Assembly: GCA_963776345.1 (NCBI GenBank)
Contig: CAVZMH010000001.1
Coordinates: 160,001-224,000, forward strand
Length of the DNA: 64,000 nt
Direction: 5' to 3'
Origin: an uncultured delta proteobacterium
Lineage (GTDB): Bacteria; Myxococcota; Myxococcia; Myxococcales; Myxococcaceae
The notes beneath the pieces were generated by a model. The model was not told where the DNA came from and did no database searches. It saw nothing but the letters and a program-made list of their open reading frames with translations. Numbering within the stretch: position 1 is the first letter of the stretch; every line of letters begins with the position of its first letter. Positions 53,172 to 63,743 of the stretch are shown one piece after another. Both the position numbers and the translations under genes were made by a program.

Positions 53172-56100
53172 CTACATCGAATCGGATCTTGCCTTCGCCG
53201 GAAGCGTCTTCACCATCGGTGAAAGGTCCGGCCCCACCCAAGGCCAGGCCGTCCCGCTCGGCCACCACGCAGGCGCACCTGACAAATAGAGCGAAGATGG
53301 GATCGTGACCACCGTGCTCCCGTCCCATTGGGTCGAGTTGTGGAAGTAGTCGTAGTTGCCGGTGCGGAACAGACTCGTCGCCGCGATGTCGTTCTGTCCC
53401 CCGCCGCCGTTGCCAAGCTCGTAGATCGCGCCAGGCGAGCCGTTTGAGAAGTGGTCGTACTGCTGAGTGATTCCGGCCGCCCCGAGCACATTGCCGACGA
53501 CGTTCATGCCGACCGCACCTGCCTCCAGGTCGAGCGCGGTGATGTTTCCAGTGCGGGCCAGGTTGGTGTCGGCGACCGAGGGGTCAGCGAAGTGGGTGGA
53601 GGAATAGTTGCGAAAAAAGGTGAAGTAGCCCGCATTGCCGTGCGTCGAGGTCGCCCCCATGTGCGGAGCAAGATTTCCCTCCATCAACTCCATGTGACTG
53701 AAGGAACAATGACTGTCGATGTTCACTTCCTGCCAGGTGCCGTCGGCCCAAGAATTGTCGGCGTAGTTGTAGCCGATGACGTTTCCGCCACCACTGATCT
53801 GAAACATGATCGGCTTGTTCATGTAGCGAACGATGTTGTTCTCGACCAGCGTCTCGGCAACACCACAGCCCAAGACGATTCCGTAGCAATCGTGCGCAAA
53901 ACCGTAGCTGGCCGAATGATGAAAATAGGAGTCACGAACGACGCAGCGATAGGTGCCACCCAGCCGCACGTGCATTCCGTCATTGGTCGCGTCAGTCTGA
54001 ACGTCTTTGACCCAGCAATATGCGGCATTCGAGATGTCGATTCCGCCGGCTGACTGGCCCAAGTACGAACCTCTGGTGCCGCCCTGGAGGTGGAGATGCT
54101 CGATACCGGCCCATTTGACGGTGGGCGCGCTCGTAACTCGAACCACTTCGGCTTTGGTCGATCCGCCGGCCTGGAACGTCCAATGGAGCGGAGAACCAAG
54201 CGTGAGCGTCCCTGAACCTGCGTTGACCGCTACGACCTCATCGACCTGGCTGAGCGAGCGCCAACCGTCTCCGTTGTTCCGCTTGAGGTTGTTGTAAGAG
54301 CAATCGCCAAGGACAACCGGGCTGACGTCAATCTGGTCGACAAGAACCAGGTCGCCAACGGCAAAGTTCGACGCCGCACTCCCGATCGTGAGTGTGTTCG
54401 TCTCTTTTGCCCCATCGGCGGTGAGCGCCACGCCTTGCCCGTTGCCCGCTGCACAGATTCGGTCACGTTGTGTTCCAATTGCCATCACCGTGCCACCGTT
54501 GCTCTTCACAATCGTCGTGCCGCCGGTGCCAGAACCGGCGCCGCGCAGCACCACGTTGCTCTTGAGCTGAATCGTGGAGGTGATGGTAAAGGTGCCCGCG
54601 CCCAGCTGCACAACTTGGTTTGCTGGACACCCGTTGATTGCGGCTTGAATGTTGCCCCCCGGGTTGACGGTTGCACAGACCGTCGTTCGCTGCGGAAGCC
54701 CGTCGGTTCCCAGCGCCAGCCCGAGCGGCTGGTCGGCAAGAATTCCTGGGCTCCACGTCGTGCGGCGGTTGGCCGGGATGATGCTCACTGTGGCGACGCT
54801 GATGGTGGCGGTCGCCTTCTTCGAGGTGTCGGCGACGCTGGTCGCCACCACATGGTAGGTCCCGGCGGTTGCGGGGGCAGTGTAATGACCACTGGCGTCG
54901 ACGCTACCGCCGCCAGCGCCTTCCTGGACCGACCACGTCACTGCGGTCGACTGTGCACCGGTCGTTCCAGTGACCGTCGCGGTGAAGGTGGCGGTGCTGC
55001 TCGGGGCGACGGTTGCGGACGAAGGCGAGATGGTCACCGATATGACGGGTGGCGGAGTCACGGTGACGGTCGCCGTTGCCTTCTTCGAGGCATCGGCAAC
55101 GCTGGTCGCGACCACGTGGTAGATGCCCGCTGTATTGGGAGCGGTGTAGTGACCAGAAGCATCGACGGTGCCTCCGCTGGCTCCCTCCTGGACTGACCAG
55201 GTGACGGCGGTGGACTGGCCGGCGGTGGTTCCAGTGACGGTGGCGGAGAAGGTCACCGTTCCGCCGACGGTCGTGGATGCGGTGGGGGGACTGAGGGAGA
55301 CGGCGATGTTCGGAGTCACCGTGACGGTGGCGGTGGCCTTCTTGGAGGTGTCGGCCACGCTGGTGGCCACCACATGGAAGGTCCCTGGCGTCCCCGGGGC
55401 GGTGTACTGACCGGAGCTGTTCACCGTGCCCCCTCCGGACTCCTGGACCGACCAGGTGACGGCGGTGGACTGGCCGGCGGTGGTTCCAGTGACGGTGGCG
55501 GTGAAGGTTGCCGTCCCTCCCACCCGGATGGTGGCCGTGCCGGGGGACACCGAAACCGCCACCACCGGCGTGGCGGTCACCGAGATGGTGGCCGTCGCGG
55601 TCTTCGACGGATCGGCCACGCTGGTGGCAAGGACATGGAACGTCCCCGTCGTGCTGGGAGCCAGGTAGTGGCCGGAGGAGTCAATGGTTCCCCCGCCACC
55701 TTCCTGGACCGACCAGGTGACCGCAGTGGATTGGCCGGCGGTGGTCCCGGTGACCGTGGCGGTGAAGGTCAGGGAGCCACCGGTCGTGGTGGAGGCATTG
55801 GACGGAACGATGTTGACCGCGATGACCGGGGCGGCTCCCACCACCACGCTGGCTGTGTCGGCCCGCGAGGGATCGGCCACGCTGGTGGCAACCACGTGGA
55901 AGGTGCCGGTCGCTCCCGGGGCGACGTAGGTCCCCGACCCATCGATGGTCCCGCCCCCTTGCTCCTCGACCGACCAGGTCACTGCCGTGGAATCGCCGGG
56001 GTTGGTCCCGGTGACGGTGGCGGTGAACGAGGACGACGCCCCGACGATGACGTTCGCACTCTTCGGACTGACCGAGACCACGACCGAGGACTGGACCGTC

Positions 56101-56432
56101 ACCGAGGCCCTGGCCCGCTTGGTCGGGTCAGCCTTGCTGGCCGCCACCACGTGGAAGGTCCCGCTCGACTGGGGAGCGGTGTACCGGCCGGAGGAGTCGA
56201 CAGCCCCACCGTCCGGCTCCTCGACGGACCAGCTGAAGCCTGCCGCCTGGATGGAACTATCCCCGGAGATGGAGGCCTGGAACTGCACCTCCCCTCCCCG
56301 AGAGGTGGTGGCCGTTGGCGGAACGACGGAGACGTCGGAGGTGACTGACCCGACTTGCCCGACTTCTCCACTACATCCCTGGGCCAGAACTGCCGTGAGG
56401 GTCAGGACGAGGAGGCTGATCGGGAGGCGCAC
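53172..56432 (-). CDS. Large surface lipoprotein: six Ig-like (Big_2-type) repeats plus a parallel beta-helix (pectate-lyase-like) domain
   Basis: Lipobox AQGC; six ~85-aa units with VTWSV/G.Y.AP/TFHVVATS; C-terminal IQAAINGC..VVQLGAGTF..VVLRGAG, LVENN, NVIGYNY. Confidence 0.88.
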   Translation of the reverse strand: MRLPISLLVLTLTAVLAQGCSGEVGQVGSVTSDVSVVPPTATTSRGGEVQFQASISGDSSIQAAGFSWSVEEPDGGAVDSSGRYTAPQSSGTFHVVAASKADPTKRARASVTVQSSVVVSVSPKSANVIVGASSSFTATVTGTNPGDSTAVTWSVEEQGGGTIDGSGTYVAPGATGTFHVVATSVADPSRADTASVVVGAAPVIAVNIVPSNASTTTGGSLTFTATVTGTTAGQSTAVTWSVQEGGGGTIDSSGHYLAPSTTGTFHVLATSVADPSKTATATISVTATPVVAVSVSPGTATIRVGGTATFTATVTGTTAGQSTAVTWSVQESGGGTVNSSGQYTAPGTPGTFHVVATSVADTSKKATATVTVTPNIAVSLSPPTASTTVGGTVTFSATVTGTTAGQSTAVTWSVQEGASGGTVDASGHYTAPNTAGIYHVVATSVADASKKATATVTVTPPPVISVTISPSSATVAPSSTATFTATVTGTTGAQSTAVTWSVQEGAGGGSVDASGHYTAPATAGTYHVVATSVADTSKKATATISVATVSIIPANRRTTWSPGILADQPLGLALGTDGLPQRTTVCATVNPGGNIQAAINGCPANQVVQLGAGTFTITSTIQLKSNVVLRGAGSGTGGTTIVKSNGGTVMAIGTQRDRICAAGNGQGVALTADGAKETNTLTIGSAASNFAVGDLVLVDQIDVSPVVLGDCSYNNLKRNNGDGWRSLSQVDEVVAVNAGSGTLTLGSPLHWTFQAGGSTKAEVVRVTSAPTVKWAGIEHLHLQGGTRGSYLGQSAGGIDISNAAYCWVKDVQTDATNDGMHVRLGGTYRCVVRDSYFHHSASYGFAHDCYGIVLGCGVAETLVENNIVRYMNKPIMFQISGGGNVIGYNYADNSWADGTWQEVNIDSHCSFSHMELMEGNLAPHMGATSTHGNAGYFTFFRNYSSTHFADPSVADTNLARTGNITALDLEAGAVGMNVVGNVLGAAGITQQYDHFSNGSPGAIYELGNGGGGQNDIAATSLFRTGNYDYFHNSTQWDGSTVVTIPSSLYLSGAPAWWPSGTAWPWVGPDLSPMVKTLPAKARSDSM
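54790..56335 (-). repeat. Coding tandem repeat, ~255-260 bp period (Ig units)
   Basis: A 52-bp block is identical at 55195-55246 and 55450-55501. Confidence 0.9.
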
Positions 56433-58280: not shown

Positions 58281-59684
58281 ATGGAGCACGCGCTTCGCCC
58301 CACATGTCCGGCCTGTGGTGGGGGACTGCTCGCCCTTTCACGCTGTGCCTCGTGCGGGGTTGCGGCACGGGTGAACGGGTATGTCGTCGAGGCGGTTCTC
58401 GCCGAGCACGCGCACGCGCGGGTCTACGCGGCCCGGTCATCTGACGGCGCCCGGGTGGCGGTCAAGGAGCTCCTCTTCGCCCTGGTCCCGAGCGTCGCGC
58501 AGGTCGATGCCTTCACCCGCGAGGTCGCCTTTCTCCGGGGCCTCACCCACCGGCACACGCCTCGTTTCATCGACGCATTCAGCGTTGGCGACGGGGTCGA
58601 GACACGCTTCTACCTGGTCCAGGAATTCATCGAGGGCGAATCGCTCCTGGCCCGACTCCAGCGCGAACCGCTCATCGGGTCGGCCTTCGACGACGTCGCG
58701 ATCCAGGTGCTGGAGACGCTGGTCGCGCTGCACGGACGGACACCCCGCATCGTTCACCGGGACATCAAGCCCGCCAATCTCGTGTTTCGCGAGAACGGCG
58801 AGCTGGTGCTGGTGGATTTCGGGTCGGCGCGCCACCTGGAACGTGGCGCCACCTTCGGTTCGACGCTGGTGGGGACGGTGGGGTACATGCCTCCCGAACA
58901 GCTCGGTGGCACGGTCGACGAATCGAGTGATCTGTATGCGCTCGGCGCCTCGTTGCTGCATGCGGCCACCGGGCAGAGCCCCGCGACCTTTCTGGTCGAC
59001 GGCATGCACCTGACGTTTCCTCCGGTGCCCGGTCTGTCCCCGAAGCAGAACGCATTCCTGGCACGACTGACGGCACCGAGGCGGGGCGCCCGGTTCTCCA
59101 CGGCATCCGAGGCCCTGGAGTGGCTGCGCTCGCCGTACCGGGTCGGACGCCGTCGCGGCGCGCTGCTGGTCGCCGCGGTGACCGCTGGCCTCGCCCTGGT
59201 CGCGTTCGGCGCCAGCCACGGGGTCCGCAGAGTCGGCACGGGTGCTCCGCCGACAGTCGTGCCCGGATCCGGAGGGCCGGCGTCGGGGGATCCCAGCCCA
59301 GCGAGCCTCCTCGCCGAGGCGCAGGCAGGCACGCGCGCGCTGTGGACCGCAGAAGCCAGCTACTTCGCCGAGCGCGACCGCTACACCGACAACCTTCCAG
59401 CCGCTGGATTCGCTCCCGACGTCTGGTGCCCCGATGGTGCCCGTACCCGTCATGGCGAGCGGGCGCTCCCCGGTGAGGCGGTGGGCTGCCATTTCCTCTT
59501 CGGCGTCATCATCGAGGGAACGCCGCCGGCGCAGCGGCTCGCCGTCTACGCACGCGGCGCGGTCGCACCGGTCCAGGGGAGGGCCTGGGTGACTTCATTC
59601 CAGGGGCCGAGGGCCGGGATCCCCGAGGAATGGACGAACGAGAAGCTTCTCTCCGTCCTCGCCTCCCGGCCTGCCGCGCCCTGA
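58281..59684 (+). CDS. Transmembrane Ser/Thr kinase with an N-terminal zinc ribbon and a pilin-like extracytoplasmic domain
   Basis: CPAC..CASC; VAVKE, HRDIKPAN, DFG, GTVGYMPPE; TM ALLVAAVTAGLALVAFG; TACGAT 7 nt before ATG 58281. Confidence 0.88.
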   Translation: MEHALRPTCPACGGGLLALSRCASCGVAARVNGYVVEAVLAEHAHARVYAARSSDGARVAVKELLFALVPSVAQVDAFTREVAFLRGLTHRHTPRFIDAFSVGDGVETRFYLVQEFIEGESLLARLQREPLIGSAFDDVAIQVLETLVALHGRTPRIVHRDIKPANLVFRENGELVLVDFGSARHLERGATFGSTLVGTVGYMPPEQLGGTVDESSDLYALGASLLHAATGQSPATFLVDGMHLTFPPVPGLSPKQNAFLARLTAPRRGARFSTASEALEWLRSPYRVGRRRGALLVAAVTAGLALVAFGASHGVRRVGTGAPPTVVPGSGGPASGDPSPASLLAEAQAGTRALWTAEASYFAERDRYTDNLPAAGFAPDVWCPDGARTRHGERALPGEAVGCHFLFGVIIEGTPPAQRLAVYARGAVAPVQGRAWVTSFQGPRAGIPEEWTNEKLLSVLASRPAAP

Positions 59685-59688
59685 AGGG

Positions 59689-59767
59689 GTGCTCACCCCT
59701 CGGAGGATAGAGCAGTCCCGGGCCGGTCGTCAGGCAGGGGAAGTCTCGGGGCTCGGACTGCTACTGC
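59689..59767 (-). repeat. Dispersed intergenic element, copy B
   Basis: Aligns to 50558-50630; begins 4 nt after the kinase stop; imperfect hairpin gcaggggaagtc/gactgctactgc. Confidence 0.85.
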
Positions 59768-60369: not shown

Positions 60370-61224
60370 TCAGGGAAAGGGAACGCGTCCCTCGGCGGTC
60401 TCGATCGGGAGCGCGTCCCGGAGCATCAACGAGTACCGCACTCCACGGTCGATCACGGGGACGTCGAGCCTGGTATGCGACAGCTCAGGCCGGGCGAGGA
60501 ACTCCGTCCGCAGCCAGCGCAGAAGCGCGGCCTGCTTCGGGGTCGAGGTGAGAACGCCATTCCCGAACTGGTCCGTCCGCGGGTCCGTCGGCTCGAGCGC
60601 CACCGCGGAGGCGCGCGGATCGGCGAGCGGCCACGGGAGCGGCTCGCGCCAGTCGGTCCCGGCCTCCTGCCGGATGAGCATGAAGCGGACGTGGCCGGCA
60701 TAGGCGGGTGCCTCCGCGGCGAAGCGGATTCGCTCGGTTCGGTAGCTCTCGGCGAGGTTGGAGATCGCGGTGGGAACCGAAGCACCCTGGCAGGCACCAC
60801 TGCAGAGGATCGTCAGTCCGGAGGTCTGACCGTTCCAGAACAGATACGGGCTCCCGTCGAACGCATCCCCCTGGTAGACGCCACCGAGCGTGGCCCAGGT
60901 TTCCAACCCCACGCTGGCCTGGAGCGCGGCTCTCTCCTCCGGCCCGAGTCGCCGGGCATGGACCGGCTCCCACACGCTGCCCGAGCGCGCCCACACGCAT
61001 CCGTCGCGGGCGAAGAGGAGGTAATCCGAGTTCTCGTAGAGAAGGGCGGACCAGCCGACACGTCCCGCGGACGCCTGCTGGAGGATCCCGGCCGCCAGCT
61101 GCTCGTTCGCAGTACAGTCGCTGAAGGTCGTGTTGACGGCGATGTCAGGAGGGGGTGCCTCTCCGCATCCGGTGATGACGATCGCCGCCAGCACCGGCAA
61201 TCCTTTGCGAACACCCATGCTCAT
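60370..61224 (-). CDS. Hypothetical lipoprotein
   Basis: Lipobox ITGC after a hydrophobic stretch. Confidence 0.75.
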   Translation of the reverse strand: MSMGVRKGLPVLAAIVITGCGEAPPPDIAVNTTFSDCTANEQLAAGILQQASAGRVGWSALLYENSDYLLFARDGCVWARSGSVWEPVHARRLGPEERAALQASVGLETWATLGGVYQGDAFDGSPYLFWNGQTSGLTILCSGACQGASVPTAISNLAESYRTERIRFAAEAPAYAGHVRFMLIRQEAGTDWREPLPWPLADPRASAVALEPTDPRTDQFGNGVLTSTPKQAALLRWLRTEFLARPELSHTRLDVPVIDRGVRYSLMLRDALPIETAEGRVPFP

Positions 61225-61265
61225 GAAGATCCCATGCCACAGGCTCGAGGGCCATGGCTGCGCAC

Positions 61266-61895
61266 TCAGTCATCCCTCAGCAGGTCGAGAAGGTCTGCGG
61301 GTGCGACGGTCTCGACCCTGGGCTCCGGGATGACTTCTGTGGGAGGAGGACCCGCGCGGTCCGTCCCGCCGTGCGGCGAGAGGCAAAACGCCCGCATGTC
61401 TCCGTTTCCTCGGAGGTCCGGCGAGTATCCGGACAGAACGCACAGCTCGTCGGCCTGGCAGTCCTTTCGGCTGCGGCATTGGATAGCGCGGTCCGGAACG
61501 CAGTGCTGGAGAACGCATCCTTCGCCGGGACCGCACTCCGAGTCGCGGACACATGAGAGGCAGCGTCCTTCGACGCAAGCCCGGGCGACGGAACAGCTCG
61601 CGGAGCGCTCACAGGGTGGCCCGATGGAGTCGTCGATTCGCATCGCTTCCCACTCGCCCAAGGGCCGCGGCTGCCGCTGAACGTTCGCGGGCGGTGCGGG
61701 GGAACTGGACGCCGGACGGATATGGTCCTCGAACAGCGGCGCCGTCGCTGGGACCGACGGGTCCACGCTCCCAGGGCGGACGGGGGCCGTCGAGGCCTGC
61801 TCCTCAGGACGAGCCCGCAGCTGACCCAGGCCGAGCCCGGTCAGCGCAGCGACCACGACGAGCAGGAGGCTCGCGCTCCTCGAAGGCAGCTCCAT
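61266..61895 (-). CDS. Membrane-anchored/secreted Cys-rich protein
   Basis: N-terminal TM; three C-x4-C-x4-C-x4/5-C-like units; starts 3 nt after the upstream stop. Confidence 0.75.
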   Translation of the reverse strand: MELPSRSASLLLVVVAALTGLGLGQLRARPEEQASTAPVRPGSVDPSVPATAPLFEDHIRPASSSPAPPANVQRQPRPLGEWEAMRIDDSIGPPCERSASCSVARACVEGRCLSCVRDSECGPGEGCVLQHCVPDRAIQCRSRKDCQADELCVLSGYSPDLRGNGDMRAFCLSPHGGTDRAGPPPTEVIPEPRVETVAPADLLDLLRDD

Positions 61896-61898
61896 GGC

Positions 61899-63743
61899 TC
61901 AATCACCGATGGTGATGCAGTTGTTGACCTTCAGGGTAGGGTCGAGCGAGTCGCCGATGTTGAAGGCGTAGTCGAGCGGAGCCCGCCCATCCGGCTCGCA
62001 CAGCGACCCCGCACAGGACCAGGGCTCCTCGAGCTGGTGATTGCCTGTTCCATGCATGAAGCTGGTGATGGCATCGATGAAGTACGAGTACGGGAAGCTG
62101 CGGGTCTCGCCCGCGTAGTCCTGGTGGGTGTCGTAGAGATCCCAGAGGTAACGAGTGAAGTTGAAGGGCCACCGCGGGCGAGTGTCGGCACAGGGACTCT
62201 GAGGAAGCTCCTCGTCCTGCCGCGTGTCCGAGTTGGAGCACGGAGCGGCAGCCGTCCAGCAGGAGCGCGGCCGCGTCATGCTTCGTCCGTTGACCGCGAG
62301 GTCACCGAGGAAAGTGGCGTACCCCTCGGTCATCTGCGCCATCCCGTGCTCGGGACCCTCGTAGGTCCAGACGCAATGGGGATAGCCGATCTCATTAAAG
62401 CAGTACTGCTCGTTGCCCCCGAAGTCGAAGCTCCGGTCGAACACGGCCTTGACCGTCGCAACGTGACCCATCTCGTGCATGATCCGCGCCTGAGGAGCGA
62501 ATGCGGCACCCGGGTCGAGGCGGATGAGTCCCTCCGGATAAGCACACGAAGTCGGGCACACGTTCTGCTGGTCGAAGGCCTGGATGCGGACGCCGCTGAA
62601 ATAGGCCTGCATCCGGGAGGACTGCTCGAGCGAATCTTCCATCCGGAAGGCAGCGTCGTAGACGTTGGCGTACGGATTCGCGTTCGCGCCGCTGCTGCCC
62701 CACTGGAAGCTCCCGAGCTGCTGGGGATTCGCGGTGGTGGTGTTCGGGTACAGCATGAAGGCTGAGGTCGAGAGCTCGATCCGGTTCAGATTCGAATCGA
62801 GGACCACGAAACGGGACTGGTCTTGCTCCATCCACCAGTACAGCCGTGCCTGGATCGAGGTGACGTCGGTCGTGGTGTTCCAGGTGATGTAAAGCGAGCC
62901 GTCCGCGGCCGTGTTTCCCTGAGCAAGCACCGCACCGTTGGAGGTGGCCCGGATCTGGTACTTGACTCGCCGCACCGGGAGCACGGCCCTGAACTGGCTC
63001 TCCGGATAGAGTGAGCCCACACAGTCCTGCAGCACCTCGGGGTGGCAGTAGTTCCCGTTGTTGTTGAAGAAGACGAGCTTCCCTCTCACCACGCCGGTGC
63101 GCCCGGGCGTTGGCGGTGGCGGAGGTGGCTCCGGGTCCGGACCTGGACAGCCAGTCACCGGGCAGAGATTCGGAATGGGCCCCGGTGCGAGGAGGCCGGT
63201 GCTGCCAGCTCCGGAGGAGGCGGTCTGCGTGCCGCGTGCGCCCGGAGCATCCCGGTAGTACTCCTCCGCGCCGATGATGCCCGGGGTCCCCTGCGTCACC
63301 TTGAGATGCAGATCGGCGGTCGCGGTCGACTGACGGTCGCCGTCGACTGCGGCCGAGGTGAGCCGGACGAGGTAGTAGCCGTCCGGAAGGTCGCCGCCGA
63401 GATCGAATGCGTGCGTTGCTGATTGGTCGCGGCCGGCGCTCCGAAGAACGGCGGAGCGACTCCGGTGGACGATCTTGCCGGCGTCGTCCGTCGCCTCCAC
63501 TGCGTGGACGAGCGATGCGCGCTCCCAGCTGTGACGCGTGGTCGCGCGCAGCCGCAGCGTGGACTTTCCGCGCTGCTTCAGCGCGGCGACGGGCTCGAGT
63601 TCTGCACGGATCTCAGGCTCGATGCCGAGGGTCGGTCCGCGGGATTGGAGCTCGCGACCGCGACCGGTGTCTGCCGGCCCCAGACGTGGACTCACCAGCA
63701 GGGCCGCGGTGAACGCAACGAGACACGCGACGATCGTCTTCAT
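61899..63743 (-). CDS. Secreted zinc metalloprotease (gluzincin-like) with N-terminal domain and Pro-rich linker
   Basis: Signal peptide, PDPEPPPPPPTP linker, IMHEMGH, MTEGYATF, LWDLYD. Confidence 0.82.
   Translation of the reverse strand: MKTIVACLVAFTAALLVSPRLGPADTGRGRELQSRGPTLGIEPEIRAELEPVAALKQRGKSTLRLRATTRHSWERASLVHAVEATDDAGKIVHRSRSAVLRSAGRDQSATHAFDLGGDLPDGYYLVRLTSAAVDGDRQSTATADLHLKVTQGTPGIIGAEEYYRDAPGARGTQTASSGAGSTGLLAPGPIPNLCPVTGCPGPDPEPPPPPPTPGRTGVVRGKLVFFNNNGNYCHPEVLQDCVGSLYPESQFRAVLPVRRVKYQIRATSNGAVLAQGNTAADGSLYITWNTTTDVTSIQARLYWWMEQDQSRFVVLDSNLNRIELSTSAFMLYPNTTTANPQQLGSFQWGSSGANANPYANVYDAAFRMEDSLEQSSRMQAYFSGVRIQAFDQQNVCPTSCAYPEGLIRLDPGAAFAPQARIMHEMGHVATVKAVFDRSFDFGGNEQYCFNEIGYPHCVWTYEGPEHGMAQMTEGYATFLGDLAVNGRSMTRPRSCWTAAAPCSNSDTRQDEELPQSPCADTRPRWPFNFTRYLWDLYDTHQDYAGETRSFPYSYFIDAITSFMHGTGNHQLEEPWSCAGSLCEPDGRAPLDYAFNIGDSLDPTLKVNNCITIGD

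Follow-up and report, generated by a model that had tools for sequence, protein, structure and literature searches.

A predicted pilin-head module at the C-terminus of a putative single-pass Ser/Thr kinase of myxobacteria

Pilin heads are known as parts of type IV filaments and as tip adhesins, and single-pass Hanks kinases activate by clustering. A pilin family, Pilin_GH, may also be annotated on cyanobacterial kinases, as a possible parallel to the protein described here. Periplasmic sensor domains on single-pass bacterial Hanks kinases have been described (PMC11032199), in a source whose available text does not contain the word "pilin". As regards the pilin head itself, the accessible part of PMC12691611 reports that the soluble PilA head (residues 32-208) binds chitosan and EPS, and that a Trp is critical for this glycan binding. 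A fusion of a pilin head with a kinase, or the module discussed below, was not found described in the literature that we searched, the scope of which was light on subscription papers and on which supplementary kinome domain tables could bear. Here, we analyzed such a fusion in a 64,000-nucleotide stretch of DNA (the window; positions 160,001 to 224,000 of contig CAVZMH010000001.1) from an uncultured member of the Myxococcaceae.

Kinase domain, transmembrane helix, and linker

The gene (58281..59684, plus strand, as are all features below unless stated) encodes a predicted single-pass Ser/Thr kinase of 467 aa with a pilin-head module at its C-terminus. From the N- to the C-terminus, the product comprises a zinc ribbon, a Hanks kinase domain, one TM helix, a Pro/Gly linker, and a tail of ∼120 residues, and its start Met is the same Met that is found in the homologues. 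The zinc ribbon named in the initial annotation is recognizable as a CxxC-x9-CxxC pattern at residues 9-25 (58305..58355), which recurs in 9 of the 12 fusion kinases inspected; matches to Zn_ribbon_3/DZR are weak in one distant fusion kinase (P0017).

The Hanks-type kinase domain (58371..59135) matches PF00069 with an E-value of 2.7e-31 (109 bits vs a cut-off of 31.7) and contains K62, E81, HRD 159-161, N166, DFG 179-181, E206, D217, and R271. Moreover, the VAxK motif, the αC Glu, the HRD, DFG, and APE-like motifs, the subdomain IX Asp, and the subdomain XI Arg are invariant in 13/13 aligned homologues. The earlier description of the kinase as intact holds for these catalytic motifs, but not for the glycine-rich loop, where AEHAHA (58401..58418) replaces GxGxxG. 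The canonical loop is absent in 12/12 fusion kinases inspected, and the non-fusion siblings are equally degenerate. Because this loop is missing, we regard the kinase activity as putative, although the catalytic residues are kept. Throughout the zinc-ribbon kinase subfamily (L148-L177, L207-L226), GxGxxG is lacking and all catalytic residues are retained.

The one hydrophobic segment of the protein, residues 293-311 (59157..59213; hydropathy 2.17), agrees with the TM helix claimed previously and carries a basic cluster on its kinase side, with five K/R before it and two after; the K/R count before the helix exceeds that after it in 13 of 14 fusion proteins, with one tie. Hydropathy, K/R asymmetry, and the Cys-pair pattern described below together predict a single TM, with the kinase inside and the pilin-head domain outside. 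The Pro/Gly-rich linker expected between the helix and the tail is present (59214..59294) and varies in both sequence and length, with an identity of 11-63% for the TM plus linker and a distance of 21-57 residues from the end of the TM to E346 (14 proteins).

Likeness of the tail to type IV pilins

The ungapped match of about 17/35 to PilA given in the initial annotation was reproduced, with 17 identities over 35 positions, by alignment of residues 345-379 (59313..59417) with residues 34-68 of M. xanthus PilA (8TJ2), and both sequence and profile alignments equate this segment with the α1-C/αβ segment of Myxococcota PilA. 8TJ2 is the sole significant PDB sequence match of the tail (E 4.1e-5 among 177,635 sequences; next match, E 0.095), and the module profile matches it with an E-value of 6.9e-10. 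The matches to family models are weaker: the NCBIfam model typeIV_PilA_Myxo (NF041775) gave E 4.8e-5 (23.4 bits, cut-off 400), whereas PF14245, the HMM proposed earlier as a check, gave E 0.18 (12.5 bits, below its cut-off of 28.5) and is weakly matched by 48 of 122 modules, with a best E-value of 5.5e-7. An hhalign comparison of the module with 35 pilins reached a probability of 98.7 over only 47 columns, beyond which a forced global alignment was uninformative, and sequence alone thus ties ∼45 tail residues to PilA. A second stretch, in which an ARG motif of the module aligns with PilA 147-170, is non-significant. The module probably descended from Myxococcota PilA. Judged by its sequence, the domain is itself not a pilin, as it has neither a class III signal peptide nor a G↓FxxxE motif nor an α1-N, and scores below the HMM cut-offs. 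The prepilin cleavage motif is, as claimed, absent from the whole ORF (no N_methyl or GFxxxE match), which bears out the view that pilin processing of the tail is impossible. It is implausible that a domain behind a cytoplasmic kinase would be incorporated into a pilus.

An AF2 model of the stalkless type IV pilin-head module (residues 339-461; 59295..59663), computed from an alignment of 122 module sequences that included no true pilins, reached a pLDDT of 94.4 and a pTM of 0.89. It has a long helix and four strands (residues 405-412, 419-426, 434-439, and 449-452; 59493..59636), together with a loop region, and α1-C packs on the predicted antiparallel β-sheet. The AlphaFold and structure-search check suggested at the outset came out in favor of a pilin fold: pilins or pseudopilins were the top 17 among 48,161 chains, and the top 15 in a second look. 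The best match was PilE (4NOA; Z 9.3, rmsd 2.2, 87 residues aligned), and 8TJ2 aligned over its residues 28-199 (Z 7.1, rmsd 3.1, 104 residues aligned) with 26% identity, the highest among the solved pilins listed; most Z-scores were <8, and the first non-pilin match had a Z of 5.8. Foldseek also ranked 8TJ2 first (E 0.13, TM 0.52), with no match at E≤0.001, and the Atlas look-alikes of the model were ComP_DUS and Pilin_GH clusters. Pilin alignments to the model mostly begin at pilin residue 28, and the long variable insert between strands 1 and 2 of PilA is missing from the modelled module. The tail is therefore predicted, on the basis of this model, to be a compact whole pilin head from pilin residue ∼28, lacking α1-N and the variable insert. 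It superseded an initial AF2 model (pLDDT 72) that was built on 12 closely related sequences and yielded no pilin (best Z 4.1) and no Foldseek match.

We examined the PilA filament contacts given in the accessible part of PMC11046646 by comparing 35 myxobacterial pilins with the 122 modules. Positions R30, K37, and E69 hold K/R or E in 35/35 pilins and R70 is conserved in 29/35, whereas all four are unconserved in the modules; the K48 position is K/R in 54/122 modules. E35, E53, D55, Y57, G65, F66, and P68, on the other hand, are retained in 94-121 of 122 modules (E53 in 112, D55 in 107). The same portion of PMC11046646 names E53 and D55 as intersubunit partners in the PilA filament and reports that E53 variants destabilize PilA, so the retention of E53 may be structural.

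These residues bear on the earlier suggestion that the tail reports on the inner-membrane pilin pool. In that case, the conserved α1-C face of the head would contact PilA in the membrane, minor pilins, or the assembly platform, and the head would report pilin inventory or assembly state. The retained PilA-like stretch, including the two intersubunit partners, would suit such a role, and the host does possess a pilB-T-C-sensor kinase-pilA-pilA2 cluster; further, according to the available text of PMC3546991, the M. xanthus kinase complex MasABK contacts PilA, whereas MasK itself showed no PilA interaction. Against this stand (i) the loss of R30, K37, E69, and R70, and a conservation of E53 that fold stability can explain; (ii) a TM that is unconserved and unlike α1-N (no motif with E5 and P22 is shared by the TM segments of 14 fusions), whereas PilS, in the part of PMC6058289 accessible, senses pilin through TM segments; (iii) the absence of any recognized pil gene near the fusions examined, the host cluster lying on another contig and its sensor being a histidine kinase; (iv) the restriction of the fusion to 8/208 family genomes; and (v) cytoplasmic versions of the module, which could not meet pilin heads. 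We therefore consider a monitor of pilin or pilus assembly quite improbable. The two tandem PilA-type genes inside the host pil cluster (L001:8578-10321, G000:C19) are 66% identical in the head.

The two Cys noted initially after the PilA-like stretch were found at 59427-59429 and 59487-59489; as Cys383 and Cys403, they close a module-specific loop (59427..59489) that is a candidate binding site. Both are present in 121/122 locus-derived modules and in 71/77 representative domains, the six exceptions being four KAP proteins, one TIR protein, and one Tat protein; the losses in the KAP proteins are probably one event. The loop has a near-invariant C, D/N, G, R, G, C motif that is unique to the module, and its identity among the eight fusion genes is 71-95%. 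Cys conservation predicts a Cys383-Cys403 disulfide, and the loss of the pair in predicted cytoplasmic forms fits both the disulfide and an extracytoplasmic location of the kinase-fused module. Further, a crude count over 28 non-independent pairs of the eight fusion genes, some near saturation, gave dN/dS values of 0.09-0.24 for the module, 0.11-0.18 for the kinase, and 0.44-1.53 for the TM plus linker, which indicates that the module is under purifying selection, with no diversifying selection.

Distribution of the fusion and reuse of the module

As proposed in the initial annotation, we searched Myxococcota genomes for the same architecture and found it in 3/13 genomes of the host's own genus and in 5/8 of one other genus. 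With the tail as query, 12 other 90% clusters were retrieved, all with kinase domains; P0017, P0018, P0048-P0050, and P0059 are distant kinase fusions. Contigs of two other studies (four runs examined) bridge the kinase to the tail, one of them spanning the whole gene. An artefact, be it a chimeric assembly or chance similarity, could be suspected from the weak single-sequence Pfam match and the pilin-free first model, but the further clusters, the eight genomes, the bridging contigs, the profile match to 8TJ2 (E 7e-10), and the fold matches leave it a vanishingly small chance. The fusion of a kinase and the module is real and is also carried by related myxobacteria.

The zinc-ribbon kinase subfamily to which the fusion belongs is present in 73/208 family genomes, and the module was absent from 42/42 non-fusion siblings read (22 top matches, 20 hand-picked). 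Among 19 sibling tails scanned, 10 match TPR (5), LamG (3), SH3 (1), or Ig (1), and many siblings end in short Pro-rich tails only. To judge from these sequences, the module sits in the interchangeable sensor position of a kinase chassis that is common among myxobacteria. In a quick tree (13 near-duplicate non-fusion rows left out), 15 of 16 kinase fusions fell in one clade (SH-aLRT 96), and another tree, which carried a long-branch warning, placed 14 of 15 together at 99/95. The data do not demonstrate that the kinase fusion arose twice, as a single clade of all 16 is compatible with them (p-AU 0.50).

The initial annotation overlooked that the pilin-head domain is a mobile module, present on many other proteins. 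A profile search (11-23 candidates scored per genome) found it in 51/208 family genomes, in 0/160 genomes of nine other families in the class, and in 0/229 other genomes of the phylum; 63 representatives among 1.84 billion matched the module profile at E≤1e-10. There was no match among 50,697 phage records, a word-based search for stand-alone forms returned only one fragment, and Pfam has no model of its own for the module. The module occurs (i) in two or three copies in tandem, preceded by signals that by eye are of the Sec or lipoprotein type; (ii) singly behind twin-arginine signals, one with a TAT_signal match; (iii) at the N-terminus of large secreted proteins; (iv) together with LamG; (v) as a half-module with TonB_C; and (vi) on KAP NTPases (four proteins) and a TIR protein, with no TM between. 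Tandem-head secreted proteins and lipoproteins (L059-L076, L128-L142) amount to as many as nine module matches in one genome (G045), and single copies of their modules matched no Pfam family above the cut-off.

Such tandem repeats show that close packing of modules is tolerated, as would be needed if the head self-associated and held the kinase in dimers or clusters, or if the protein were a low-activity kinase scaffold that takes its input via the cytoplasmic zinc ribbon. The many siblings with only short Pro-rich tails and the degenerate glycine-rich loop would suit such a scaffold, whereas a strongly conserved, module-unique loop and the presence of the module in secreted, soluble proteins are more in keeping with ligand binding, and all catalytic residues are invariant. 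We thus hold a scaffolding role to be rather unlikely.

Unrelated proteins (P0079, P0090, P0105, P0122) likewise carry tandem heads of the Pilin_GH/ComP type that lack the stalk, so this module family is not the only case in which pilin heads have been reused. Repeated Pilin_GH/ComP_DUS-like heads were seen in P0066, P0071, P0079, P0090, P0099, P0105, and P0122, some of which carry dockerin, cohesin, or peptidoglycan-binding domains, and appear to be a parallel reuse of stalkless pilin heads. Large exported proteins (L014:301-1968; P0134, P0135, P0150, P0165) end in a near-complete PilA-type domain that matches PF14245 at up to E 2.7e-22; the L014 protein keeps part of the hydrophobic helix and has no cleavage motif. 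These proteins represent a separate, second reuse of PilA. In apparent chimeric assemblies (among L035:174-1169, P0111, and P0073), the module is joined to a POR_N fragment or, in a record with the title Chitinophagia, a BNR/sialidase-like region is joined to a myxobacterial pilin N-terminus.

The KAP and TIR proteins are candidate single-gene defence or signalling systems. In P0042, P0058, P0060, P0091, and P0062, a module lacking the Cys pair is followed by an unassigned C-terminal domain of ∼140 aa; we suspected that the TIR fusion and the KAP fusions share this C-terminal domain, but the similarity was not significant. In one KAP gene (L194:10152-12800), GC3 is 0.74, compared with ∼0.9-0.98 in its surroundings, and a tRNA-Gly gene and a DrmC-like PLD gene are found ∼3 kb away.

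The window has a GC of 0.66-0.70 from 42 kb on, including the fusion gene, vs 0.70-0.78 before. Across 12 fusion loci, at which neighbor genes were called by a GC heuristic, no conserved neighborhood was found except between two close relatives, and in two near-identical strains the flank of the fusion gene differs directly past the stop codon. A perfect 7-bp inverted repeat, seen by eye, directly follows the stop codon at this switch point (59685-59700). Scans for tRNA genes, which covered the window and the flanks of a set of kinase fusions, were negative. On the minus strand, 53172-56432 encodes a lipoprotein-like protein of 1086 aa, in which Big_2 Ig domains are repeated and the C-terminal region, which has no Pfam match, is β-helix-like by eye. 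Also on the minus strand, 60370-63743 holds three exported-looking genes (284, 209, and 614 aa), of which the 209-aa product is Cys-rich (weak DUF7107) and the 614-aa product has an HExxH motif and no Pfam match.

These contexts matter for the suggestion that the head is a decoy for pilus-binding phage. The module would mimic pilin for a phage protein that recognizes pili or pilin, and binding would activate the kinase, TIR, or KAP output and halt infection, with the secreted repeats acting as soluble decoys. This idea stays alive because of (i) the TIR and KAP forms; (ii) the patchy presence, even within the host's own genus; and (iii) the accessory location, with its lower GC, variable neighbors, flank switch at the stop codon, and, for one KAP fusion, the nearby tRNA-Gly and DrmC-like PLD genes. 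However, the pilin core is kept while the large variable insert, the exposed filament surface to be copied, is deleted, and selection is purifying rather than diversifying. In addition, PADLOC matched only 1/23 hand-picked neighbors of kinase fusions, a generic AAA activator. Its PD-T4-6 match to the fusion kinase itself (E 8e-43) is uninformative, since higher scores were obtained for 8/8 ordinary kinases from that genome. On balance, an immune decoy is unlikely. We are similarly doubtful of a broader version, in which the head is a general "pilin bait" wired to kinase, TIR, and KAP outputs and to multivalent soluble decoys, and detects phage or rival proteins that grab type IV pilin; if true, integrated decoys would have an analogue in bacteria. 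The sensor-or-decoy proposal of the initial annotation thus stands insofar as the fusion is real, conserved, and placed in the sensor-domain slot of its siblings, whereas a specific connection with either the pilin pool or pilus phage is unsupported.

Proposed function and comparison with known systems

The loss of filament contacts, the gain of a conserved Cys loop, and purifying selection favor a general ligand sensor over the pilin-pool and phage-decoy readings. We tentatively propose, with a probability of roughly 45%, a receptor kinase of the inner membrane with a periplasmic head for an envelope ligand other than a pilus subunit, the ligand being of glycan type and activation occurring by clustering. 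The PilA-derived module would have spread to many proteins by shuffling, with the zinc-ribbon kinase chassis acquiring it at least once. The periplasmic pilin-fold head would bind a constant envelope ligand via its conserved Cys-closed loop; a constant ligand is suggested by the dN/dS of the module, which is near that of the kinase. The favored ligand class would be a repetitive envelope polymer, e.g., an amino-sugar glycan, to which binding would be weak and would involve avidity. We prefer a glycan because the PilA head binds chitosan and EPS, and because the repeats and LamG partners of the module suit weak multivalent binding. Ligand binding may then cluster the receptors, so that the kinase domains could undergo mutual phosphorylation of the activation loop (T191/S194/T195) before they act on cytoplasmic targets. 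The glycan-critical Trp in the accessible part of PMC12691611 maps, after renumbering, to the insert that is missing in the module, and an envelope-glycan ligand leaves the cytoplasmic KAP and TIR versions unexplained.

The fusion would thus work as a single-pass sensor kinase built on an undescribed mobile domain family, in which a pilin head, cut loose from its stalk, appears to have been reused in about a quarter of the genomes of one myxobacterial family. The myxobacterial kinome, most of which is orphan, thereby gains a sensor class, and since the module is a small, soluble, well-modelled domain with a candidate binding loop, pilin-head sensing becomes directly testable.

Among known systems, M. 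xanthus PilA (8TJ2; NF041775; PF14245) resembles the module in the α1-C/αβ segment and across the head, whereas the module lacks the prepilin signal and α1-N, the variable insert, and the filament salt-bridge residues, carries a Cys pair in a new αβ loop, and is located behind a kinase and a TM. The compact minor pilins PilE, ComP (5HZ7), and PilV (5V23) are the best structural matches (the latter two with Z 8.0 and 7.8), and PF16732 ComP_DUS and PF16734 Pilin_GH are the families of the Atlas look-alikes; PilE, ComP, and PilV are genuine pilins, and their identity of 4-13% to the module points to a likeness in size and fold rather than to close descent. PilS/PilR and MasABK resemble the fusion as membrane kinases linked to pilin, and neither PilS nor MasABK is described as a pilin-domain protein in the available portions of PMC6058289 and PMC3546991. 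PilS, according to the former, is a six-TM histidine kinase, whereas the fusion is a Ser/Thr kinase with one TM, encoded off the pil contig. The anti-phage kinase PD-T4-6 is, like the fusion, a stand-alone Ser/Thr kinase gene. Finally, receptor kinases of the PknB/Stk1 type, as well as those of myxobacteria and planctomycetes, share with the fusion the order of kinase, TM, and extracytoplasmic domain. The fusion kinase, which scores 104 bits against the PknB model (cut-off 450), differs from the PknB/Stk1 type by its N-terminal zinc ribbon, its degenerate glycine-rich loop, and a sensor that is a pilin head.
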